IMG/VR virus record: IMGVR_UViG_2974654489_000001
Coordinates: 1-44,851 of that record
Length of the DNA: 44,851 bases
Strand: one strand, 5' to 3'
Source: a virus
Lineage: Duplodnaviria; Heunggongvirae; Uroviricota; Caudoviricetes
In this document: piece after piece, positions 6,122-6,389 of the stretch
How positions within the stretch are numbered: position 1 is the first letter of the stretch
Layout: every line of letters starts with the position of its first letter
Notes under the pieces: model-generated
The model's input: only the letters and a program-made list of their open reading frames with translations
Databases searched by the model: none
What the model was told of the DNA's origin: nothing
Made by a program: the position numbers and the translations under genes

Positions 6122-6164
6122 AAACTATTCGAATAGTTGACTTTTCACTGAAAATATGCTAAGC
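6122..6164 (+). promoter_or_regulatory. Sigma70-like promoter (TTGACT-17 bp-TAAGCT) preceded by perfect palindrome ACTATTCGAATAGT
   Basis: -35 at 6136-6141, -10 at 6159-6164; same architecture repeated at 38056-38084. Confidence 0.5.
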
Positions 6165-6368
6165 TCCACCTGAGCTTGTGAAGTATGAACAAGCGACCGC
6201 GGCGCGGGCAGGTAACGGAGCGGGACGTAAGTCCTGAGTGTAGTTACGCTGACGCGTTCGGAAGGGCCATACTCTATTGCTTGTGTAAAAAGTAACTGGT
6301 TTACTGAGATTACGCCGTTTCTATGTTTAAATGATAAGGACTAGCGCCCCGCTTTATGGCGGGGCTTT
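6165..6368 (+). ncRNA. Candidate leader RNA or small RNA (copy 1 of paralogous element) ending in intrinsic terminator hairpin
   Basis: About 70 nt downstream of the promoter near-identical to 38085-38155; GC hairpin 6346-6365 plus TTT just before the Rz RBS; embedded short ORFs differ in frame between copies. Confidence 0.4.
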
Positions 6369-6389
6369 ACTTATCGAGAAAGGAGAAAC

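Follow-up and report, generated by a model that had tools for sequence, protein, structure and literature searches.

The put RNAs of phage HK022 act in cis and independently of protein, conferring antitermination and antipausing via the β' zinc-binding domain. The eps-associated RNA (EAR) of Bacillus, a structured cis RNA of ~120 nt without homology to put, promotes read-through of distant terminators. Lambda Q acts through DNA and a sigma-dependent pause, and we know of no need for a conserved fold in the lambda 6S RNA. To our knowledge, stabilizers of the ompA type have no requirement for a sequence-invariant helix and tail. In HK022, putL and putR are two paralogous copies that head two transcription units, and the put RNAs, of about 70 nt, form two similar-sized stem-loops with conserved bulges (PMC9378689). 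StxS of Stx phages is the counterpart of the short lambda PR'-tR' '6S' transcript (PMC7547250).

We analyzed a 44,851-nt stretch of phage DNA (IMG/VR record IMGVR_UViG_2974654489_000001; hereafter the window) belonging to a Kagunavirus, a virulent Guernseyvirinae siphophage of E. coli, and describe a structured RNA element that it carries in two copies, each behind a promoter. Both element regions are nearly identical to those of Escherichia and Salmonella Guernseyvirinae siphophages, including Golestan, K1G, K1H and many Kagunavirus records. Guernseyvirinae (Kagunavirus, Jerseyvirus and Cornellvirus) are among the most often isolated phages of E. coli and Salmonella and are used in biocontrol and therapy cocktails.

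The closest functional analogue of the element is HK022 put. In both systems two copies lie just 3' of two sigma-70 promoters, with terminators downstream; both RNAs form two stem-loops with bulges; the fold begins about 3 nt from the 5' end, as in putL; and a dedicated antiterminator protein is not recognizable. Both copies in the window have the put-like location; among 179 records of the same type (A, see below), only 41 carry two copies. The systems differ, however, in the size of their domains (21 nt and 65 nt, about 92 nt before the tail, against two ~35-nt stems in put) and in their carriers, a virulent Guernseyvirinae siphophage in one case and the lambdoid HK022 in the other.

Results

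Two promoters and a direct repeat

The gene map was drawn from PHROG matches and the annotated K1G genome. A plus-strand block at 81-5741 encodes the small and large terminase, portal, head morphogenesis and Hoc-like proteins and is closed by a bidirectional terminator (5745-5765), which is separated from copy 1 by a small minus-strand ORF. The operon 3' of copy 1 (6390-13532, plus strand) carries the Rz/Rz1 spanins, the scaffold, the major head protein, and head-tail and tail genes; terminator scans place one terminator inside it, after the major head gene (8737-8758), and one at its end (13537-13556). Minus-strand genes occupy 13561-15971, and the tail operon (16124-25468, plus strand) has its own promoter and leader, from which the element is absent. 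Replication genes on the minus strand run up to a gene for a helix-turn-helix (HTH) protein (37767-38018, minus strand). Beyond copy 2, the plus strand encodes small early ORFs, holins and endolysin (38418-42875; PHROG and K1G), followed by the terminase genes, with a terminator at 39491-39512 downstream of copy 2.

The longest repeat family that the repeat finder returned in the window is a direct repeat of 71 nt with 87% identity (6136-6206 and 38056-38126). A model's sequence-only reading of the window had described a promoter and conserved segment occurring twice at these places, and pairwise alignment bears this out: the two copies share about 35 transcribed bases (CTGAGCTTGTGAAGTATGAACAAGCGACCGCGGCGCG), diverge in the middle, and then share a second block, GCGTT.GG.AGG.CC...TCTATTG, as that reading had also stated.

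The copy 1 promoter (6137-6165, plus strand) consists of a -35 hexamer TTGACT (6137-6142), a 17-nt spacer and a -10 hexamer TAAGCT (6160-6165), with an extended -10 TG at 6157-6158 and a predicted start near G6172. The copy 2 promoter (38057-38085, plus strand) repeats this arrangement, with TTGACT at 38057-38062, a 17-nt spacer, TAAGCT at 38080-38085, TG at 38077-38078 and a start predicted close to G38092; the HTH gene is read divergently from it. Judged by their sequence, both are strong sigma-70 promoters of the extended -10 type. A simple promoter scan missed the TTGACT/TAAGCT promoter because TAAGCT matches TATAAT at only three of six positions. The extended -10 TG of both promoters had not been mentioned in the sequence-only reading.

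Just 5' of the copy 1 promoter, the sequence contains an array of TATTCC/GGAATA half-sites (6087-6131), including the palindrome GGAATAAACTATTCG at 6117-6131; copy 2 has no such array. The array is likely a protein-binding site regulating the copy 1 promoter.

A further promoter, TTGCAC-17-TACTAT (38355-38383, plus strand), separates the copy 2 hairpin from the gene at 38418; it is of a kind that we call class II, which occurs four times in the window and three times in K1G. It directly serves the 38418 gene and lies outside the copy 2 RNA element. Copy 2 is therefore not simply the leader of the 38418 gene, as had been proposed.

Both copies adopt the same fold

Each copy folds into a structure of ~110 nt, composed of a 5' hairpin (P1), a long rod and a conserved AAGGGCC...YUAUUG tail. 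P1 comprises 5-7 bp and begins ~2 nt past the predicted start; a 2-nt link joins it to the 65-nt rod, which is built of P2 (CCG-C-GG.GCG / CGC.UUCGG), P2b, P3, an asymmetric internal loop and an apical hairpin, P4.

Copy 1 (6170-6279, plus strand) was delimited by folding, covariation and the covariance model R1, built from A and C sequences (types defined below) with this structure, which scores it at 140 bits. Its P1 pairs 6174-6179 with 6189-6194. Its rod (6197-6261) starts with P2, which contains a bulged C (6200) and tandem G.U pairs, and continues through P2b and P3 to an internal loop with GGAGC on the 5' side and GAGUGUA on the 3' side; P4 (6222-6226 with 6231-6235) is capped by a GUAA loop. 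The tail reads AAGGGCC (6262-6268), then CUCUAUUG (6272-6279). Copy 2 (38090-38200, plus strand; a B variant), supported by the same three lines of evidence, scores 67 bits with R1 (E=4e-16). Its P1 and lower P2 match those of copy 1, and its P3, internal loop and P4 (CACG-UGUAG-CGUG) have another sequence in equal architecture. R1 finds exactly these two copies in the window, and no third copy was returned with filters off.

Seven sequence variants from related phages, each folded alone, gave the identical architecture, and MAFFT-based RNAalifold agrees with the single-sequence folds on P1, P2 and P3. Across variants the 3' strand of the internal loop reads (U)GAGUGUA or UAGCGUA, and element length is 109-112 nt in A-D and 97-101 nt in E.

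The fold is conserved on one strand and at the RNA level

Among 40 distinct sequences, aligned under the guidance of the covariance model and therefore fitted to it in a way that inflates pairing somewhat, 97.1% of cells were standard pairs, against 31-47% when the 3' partners were slid by 1-3 columns. Both-sided, compensatory changes occurred in 18 of the 28 pairs, and none of 500 shuffles reached the observed covariation score. P1, P3 and P4 covary heavily. The A type has GCUUGU/ACAAGC as its P1, the E type ACGCU/AGCGU; P4 occurs as GGGAC/GUCCU, GUGC/GCAC, GUGCC/GGCAC, CACG/CGUG and GGGCG/CGCCC, and its loops include GUAA, GUUA, UGUAG, AUUA and UCACAA. Loop nucleotides are loosely conserved and the invariant part is a helix: the two consecutive G.U pairs of lower P2 are present in 39 of 39 sequences, and the 3' AAGGGCC is nearly invariant. 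Since the complementary strand would have A.C mismatches in place of the invariant G.U pairs, the plus strand is the functional one. These data show that the fold is real, strand-specific and under selection, and that the element always lies at the 5' end of its predicted transcript, right behind the promoter. The promoter-proximal structured leader that the sequence-only reading had suspected thus held up when folding and covariation were extended to related phages.

A short ORF embedded in the element had been noted to change frame between the copies and taken to indicate conservation of RNA. A 1-nt indel indeed shifts the frame, and the ATG is lost in D variants (GAGATATCGC) and absent in E and F. 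The strand signal of the G.U pairs and the loss of the ATG in some variants together argue for an RNA and not a peptide.

Two further features of the fold were considered and discarded. A pseudoknot joining the P1 loop (GUAUG) to the tail (CAUAC) is contradicted by free variation of the tail position and by uncompensated D and E variants. A sigma-dependent pause element (NANNAT) in the P1 loop, AAGTAT in the A type, is missing in D, E and L025 variants.

The element is carried by nearly all Guernseyvirinae

Pattern scans of IMG/VR and a phage collection showed that the sequence comes in at least five variants, besides sub-variants: Kagunavirus carries A, B, C and D, and Jerseyvirus carries E. 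The A type was found in 179 phage records at 220 places; the second copy, present in 41 of these records, is upstream of early genes. The E type was found in 269 records, SETP3 among them, each with one copy adjoining the spanin gene. Guernseyvirinae-grade major head proteins (at least 88% identity) occur in about 460 records, and in the 179 and 269 records, about 450 of these ~460 Guernseyvirinae, the element heads the spanin (Rz)/scaffold/major-head operon. The promoter layout T(T/A)GACT-17-TGnTA(A/C)GCT is kept in all A-E variants; the -10 itself is non-consensus (TAAGCT, TACGCT or TAACCT), with TG always before it, and the layout is conserved nonetheless.

More divergent leaders, termed F, occupy the corresponding site in Cornellvirus SP-031, Enterobacter phage phiEap-2 and Hafnia phage TS33, behind a similar promoter (TGATAACCT). 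They share a 5' triloop hairpin, CCGC...GCGGAAGGGYC and UCUUUUACG. The broader covariance model R2 detects them at E=0.1-0.7 only, and a homologous fold has to be imposed by constraint and is far from their minimum-free-energy fold; F leaders are probably relatives of the element. A GGAATA-N3-TATTC motif adjoins the -35 in E-type and F-type phages too, so that the half-site array upstream of the promoter is conserved in A, E and F.

Other leaders take the element's place in some phages. Shemara and Pantoea phage AH01 carry an unrelated multi-hairpin leader at the capsid-operon site. In one-copy phages such as K1G, another promoter and another leader, of ~190 nt, occupy the copy 2 site, with the linker, hairpin and class II promoter downstream unchanged. 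This replacement implies that the promoter and 5' RNA domain behave as an exchangeable cassette.

Outside the subfamily, nothing similar was found in 5,426 E. coli genomes. When 100,044 species genomes were scanned for the pattern, 87 stretches came up, nearly all of them in organisms with G+C-rich DNA; the covariance model matched only two, both on short stray contigs (738 and 6,220 bp). Relatives of the major head protein beyond Guernseyvirinae have at most 41% identity, and the element is missing from two of these distant capsid relatives, Pseudomonas phage Cruim01 and Achromobacter phage 83-24. We did not find the element described in the literature searched; one catalogue (PMC10690425) may include it anonymously. 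We classify it as a so far undescribed family within a known general kind of RNA, the promoter-proximal structured leader.

Downstream hairpins score as good terminators in A-type phages only

In copy 1, an A/U-rich linker (6280-6345, plus strand) follows the element and contains a conserved GAUUnCGCCGU block, which is kept in K1G although the element is missing from that site. For this reason, pairing of the GCCGU block with P2 was rejected as a candidate interaction. The linker leads to the hairpin GCCCCGC-UUUAUG-GCGGGGC (6346-6365) and UUU, together spanning 6346-6368 on the plus strand and ending 12 nt upstream of the Rz ribosome-binding site AAGGAG (6380-6385; ATG at 6390). On an approximate score of the d'Aubenton-Carafa type computed with current energies, this hairpin (d=+17) is the best intrinsic-terminator candidate in the window, compared with +2 to +13 at operon ends, and it also tops the terminator scan; the terminator after the major head gene (8737-8758) also scores well (d=+8). 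A scan of the plus strand between 6368 and 8721 revealed no promoter-like site, which leaves the scaffold and major head genes without a second candidate promoter. With strong termination signals 3' of the promoter at 6137, polymerases must pass at least one of them to make capsid in this phage.

The copy 2 linker (38201-38304, plus strand) contains a (CTCA)n microsatellite (38255-38269), the hairpin TGGTGCC-TTC-GGCACCA (38271-38287, plus strand), with a UUCG-type loop and no U-tract, and CGUUU repeats (38288-38304, plus strand). Its hairpin is a non-terminator by our score (d=-40). Both hairpins named in the sequence-only reading are thus present, that of copy 1 with its UUU just before the Rz ribosome-binding site; its claim that each copy ends in a terminator before a gene stands for copy 1 and fails for copy 2, and the U-rich run it placed after the copy 2 hairpin is no real U-tract.

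The same division was seen across phages. Each unit ends in a stable GC hairpin, most of them without a U-tract, and d is -3 (borderline) in the E type, -40 in the F type and -22 to -40 in all copy 2 units, leaving good terminator hairpins to A-type phages only. Because the hairpin is a poor terminator outside the A type, defeating it cannot be all that the element does across the family. Element and hairpin are 65 to 90 nt apart, a variable distance that includes the (CTCA)n repeat in copy 2, and reading of the A, B, D, E and F leaders revealed no conserved pairing between element and hairpin.

No homology to described RNA families was found

We located putL and putR in the HK022 genome (NC_002166). 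The HK022 immunity region, which contains both, had no match to R1 (E≤10) or R2 (E≤5), and local alignments of the element to putL and putR were no better than alignments to shuffled sequences (p=0.11-0.95); an apparent match of GAGCGCGGCGGG..CAGG..AACGG to GACCGCGGCGCGGGCAGGUAACGG was not significant (p=0.11). Both the covariance-model and the alignment tests being negative, membership of the put family is not supported. Rfam 15 gave no match in the whole window at gathering thresholds, and at E≤10 the best hits at both loci reached 15-16 bits against gathering scores of 35-70, which is noise. These tests, which covered riboswitches, ribozymes, EAR, 6S and Y RNA, give no ground for placing the element in any of those families.

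The element resembles lambda nut (boxA/boxB with N) as a promoter-proximal RNA signal in the leaders of two operons and as a hairpin combined with a short conserved single-stranded motif; CUCUAUUG vaguely recalls boxA CGCUCUUA. We rejected the boxA reading, as YUAUUG varies at boxA-critical positions (GUCUAUUG, GCUAUAUUG and others). The P4 loop, unlike boxB, varies freely. PHROG scans of 20 ORFs at 37558-44701 and 81-629 (early, lysis and small-terminase genes) found no N-like protein, and the element is thus not assigned to nut. More generally, no Q- or N-like protein was recognized among the phage proteins by PHROG, where many early ORFs have no assigned function.

In this phage, copy 1 also recalls the lambda PR'-qut-6S-tR' module and StxS: a strong promoter, an untranslated RNA of ~195 nt, a good terminator, then lysis and structural genes. 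Unlike in the PR'/Q module, the RNA fold is the conserved feature here, the terminator is weak or absent in many relatives, and PHROG results contain no Q-family match, with small unassigned ORFs remaining. EAR, a precedent for independent classes of read-through RNA, resembles the element, on the cis-acting reading favored below, as a structured cis RNA of about that length without homology to put; organism and operon differ and there is no Rfam match. Finally, a highly expressed mRNA with a hairpin only a few nucleotides from its 5' end recalls the stabilizers of the ompA 5' UTR, from which the element differs by its sequence-invariant helix and tail.

Discussion

We tentatively favor the view that the element is a cis-acting, put/nut-like read-through leader that controls elongation. 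Each copy would be a module in which a strong promoter produces a transcript starting within about 2 nt of the two-domain fold, and the nascent folded RNA would act in cis on the polymerase that transcribed it, either alone, like HK022 put, or with a phage or host protein partner, like lambda nut with N. The recognition surface may consist of the invariant lower P2, with its tandem G.U pairs and bulged C, and the AAGGGCC tail, the variable P3 and P4 serving as scaffold. The modified polymerase would pass the hairpin terminator at 6346-6368, 175 nt downstream, and that at 8737-8758, so that the Rz-scaffold-capsid-tail operon could be expressed; transcripts entering the early/lysis/packaging unit would gain termination resistance from copy 2. 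We favor this reading because of the promoter-proximal position, the two paralogous copies heading two units, and a strong terminator without an alternative promoter for capsid genes. The second good terminator, after the major head gene, and the lack of any recognized Q- or N-like protein count in its favor as well. Several observations run against it. The downstream hairpin scores as a good terminator only in A-type phages (d=-3, borderline, in E; -22 to -40 in F and copy 2), the element has no similarity to put in sequence or structure, the tail operon uses its own promoter and leader without the element, and unrelated leaders can replace it at both loci (in K1G and in Shemara and AH01). 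The conserved half-site array 5' of the copy 1 promoter points, moreover, to a DNA-binding protein that sets the timing through initiation.

The same promoter, ~195-nt RNA and hairpin could instead constitute a self-contained gene for a stand-alone small RNA acting in trans, by binding or titrating a host protein through the invariant P2 and tail or by base-pairing, with read-through into Rz being secondary. We regard this as possible, if somewhat unlikely. The portability of the module argues for it: at the early locus, 41 of 179 phages carry the promoter-element-linker-hairpin unit as an optional extra cassette in front of a promoter that is itself intact, and every unit closes with a stable GC hairpin, that of copy 1 scoring as a strong terminator. 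StxS, like the lambda 6S transcript, provides a precedent. Most of these hairpins, however, lack a U-tract and score as non-terminators, so that defined 3' ends would need processing; the most highly expressed structural genes have no promoter other than that of copy 1, which demands substantial read-through; and a search of E. coli genomes at E≤0.01 gave no complementary sequence. A module that stabilizes or processes the 5' end of the mRNA would dispense with a terminator altogether. P1 and the rod would shield late mRNA from 5'-end-dependent RNase E decay, or processing in the A/U-rich linker would leave the GC hairpin as a protective 5' end of the Rz-capsid mRNA. The position of P1 ~2 nt from the predicted 5' end in all variants, the presence of the module on the operon needing the highest expression, and the succession of A/U-rich linker and hairpin adjoining the ribosome-binding site in A, E and F types are consistent with such a role. 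It leaves unexplained the strict sequence of lower P2 and tail while every other helix covaries, as well as copy 2, which a further promoter separates from its genes, and we consider it distinctly unlikely.

The sequence-only reading had also offered riboswitch-like leaders and attenuators among its possible functions, alongside put/nut-type control and small RNAs; the data narrow this list only in part, leaving the latter two as the likelier and disfavoring the former, since no conserved alternative pairing was seen, the 65-90 nt spacer is variable and the hairpin is mostly a non-terminator. An element that senses a ligand or factor and toggles a downstream terminator would fit the order of promoter, structured domain, hairpin and gene, and the P4 region of A- and E-type leaders includes 6-7 nt able to pair with the hairpin's 5' arm. 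This complementarity is lost in F, B, C and D units, the microsatellite adds to the variation in spacer length, loops are loosely conserved while a helix is invariant, and Rfam families are unmatched, all of which make such a switch very improbable. Functions outside RNA are hardly credible, being largely excluded by covariation. An inverted repeat, AAGCTC-N1-5-GAGCTT, extends from the -10 region to about +8 in A-D variants and could mark an operator or origin, and many GenBank records annotate a 'hypothetical protein' over the element; yet pairing is kept by compensatory changes at 18 helix positions, the G.U pairs are strand-specific, the arms of the inverted repeat lie anywhere from 1 to 5 nt apart, and neither ATG nor frame of the ORF is conserved.

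Were the favored cis read-through leader to act without a dedicated protein, the element could form a third class of nascent-RNA processive antiterminators beside put and EAR, one of independent evolutionary origin. This class would be carried by a whole virulent enterobacterial subfamily, reprogramming the host polymerase without a phage polymerase, with the G.U/bulged-C helix and AAGGGCC as its binding surface. We put this forward as an unlikely, speculative extension. An RNA that modifies the polymerase would broaden a mechanism with very few examples (put and EAR) and could give synthetic biology a compact part for read-through; as a host-factor decoy or stabilizer, the element would still be a new phage RNA family. 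The covariation-supported RNA offers a testable handle on how Guernseyvirinae schedule late transcription with host polymerase only, in a region now carried as 'hypothetical protein' in many GenBank records.

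Promoters and candidate regulatory sites around the element

A second promoter family, TTGCAY-17-TACTAT, is represented by four copies in the window and three in phage K1G. The window copies each lie directly upstream of a gene: two on the + strand (38355-38383 and 39821-39849) and two on the - strand (16015-15987 and 6070-6042). Both the spacer, ACMCCRAYATAATAGGR, and the leader, TCAYTTA..., are near-identical among these promoters, and the conservation of the spacer suggests that a regulator is bound there. TTTACTTATCGAGAAAGGAG, located just 5' of the Rz ribosome-binding site, is similar to this family's leader.

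At 6087-6131, adjoining the -35 box of the copy 1 promoter, lies a cluster of TATTCC/GGAATA half-sites that contains the palindrome GGAATAAACTATTCG. This cluster is kept in phages carrying the E-type (Jerseyvirus) and F-type (divergent, Cornellvirus-type) leaders, and none is found at copy 2 of the window. It probably sets the timing of the late promoter, as an operator or as an activator site. On the - strand, a promoter-like site, TTCACA-18-CATATT, overlaps the promoter and the 5' hairpin P1 in both copies of the element (6182-6153 in copy 1, 38102-38073 in copy 2), and at copy 2 it is directed into the HTH gene. The site may be a genuine divergent promoter, or it may simply follow from the conservation of the sequence.

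A separate extended -10 promoter, TGCTAGAAT, serves the tail operon and is followed by a G+C-rich leader of about 95 nt (both within 16019-16123) with two possible hairpins, UGCGCC...GGCGCA and CGGG-UGGUU-CCCG. The covariance model detected no relation between this leader and the element.

Variation in the copy 2 leader and replacement of the element

The linker of copy 2 contains a (CTCA)n microsatellite (38255-38269) whose repeat number differs among phages, with 3.75 units in the window and more in L016, a Golestan-type IMG/VR contig. In B-type copy 2, GCGAAACG in the 5' strand of the rod (38133-38140) is perfectly complementary to CGUUUCGC (38297-38304), which sits in the CGUUU repeats 3' of the hairpin. 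This long-range pairing replaces the rod in the minimum-free-energy fold of full-length copy 2; it may be an alternative structure peculiar to the B variant, or the complementarity may have arisen by chance.

Other leaders occupy the place of the element in some phages. At the copy 2 site of K1G (36685-36920), a consensus-like TTGACA-17-TAAAAT promoter precedes a different leader of about 190 nt, which holds the copy 1 terminator hairpin AAAGCCCCGCCATAAAGCGGGGCGCT in inverted orientation and is followed by the shared GUCUAUU motif, linker and hairpin. In the Guernseyvirinae phages Shemara (Salmonella; ~285-430) and AH01 (Pantoea; ~275-430), the position 5' of the spanin gene is taken, in place of the element, by a leader that is unrelated to it and apparently consists of several hairpins, CUUGACC...GGGCCGUAAGGCC...GGUCAAACAGACAUCGG; this leader may represent a second, analogous RNA family.

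Annotation and terminators

Many genomes deposited in GenBank carry a "hypothetical protein" annotated over the element; these annotations are probably spurious. In the window, convergent transcription units are closed by near-identical bidirectional terminators, AAGGCCCC-loop-GGGGCCTT, which a repeat search groups as family D1 and which lie at 5745-5765, 13529-13558 and 25479-25508 (with a further copy at 3369-3398).
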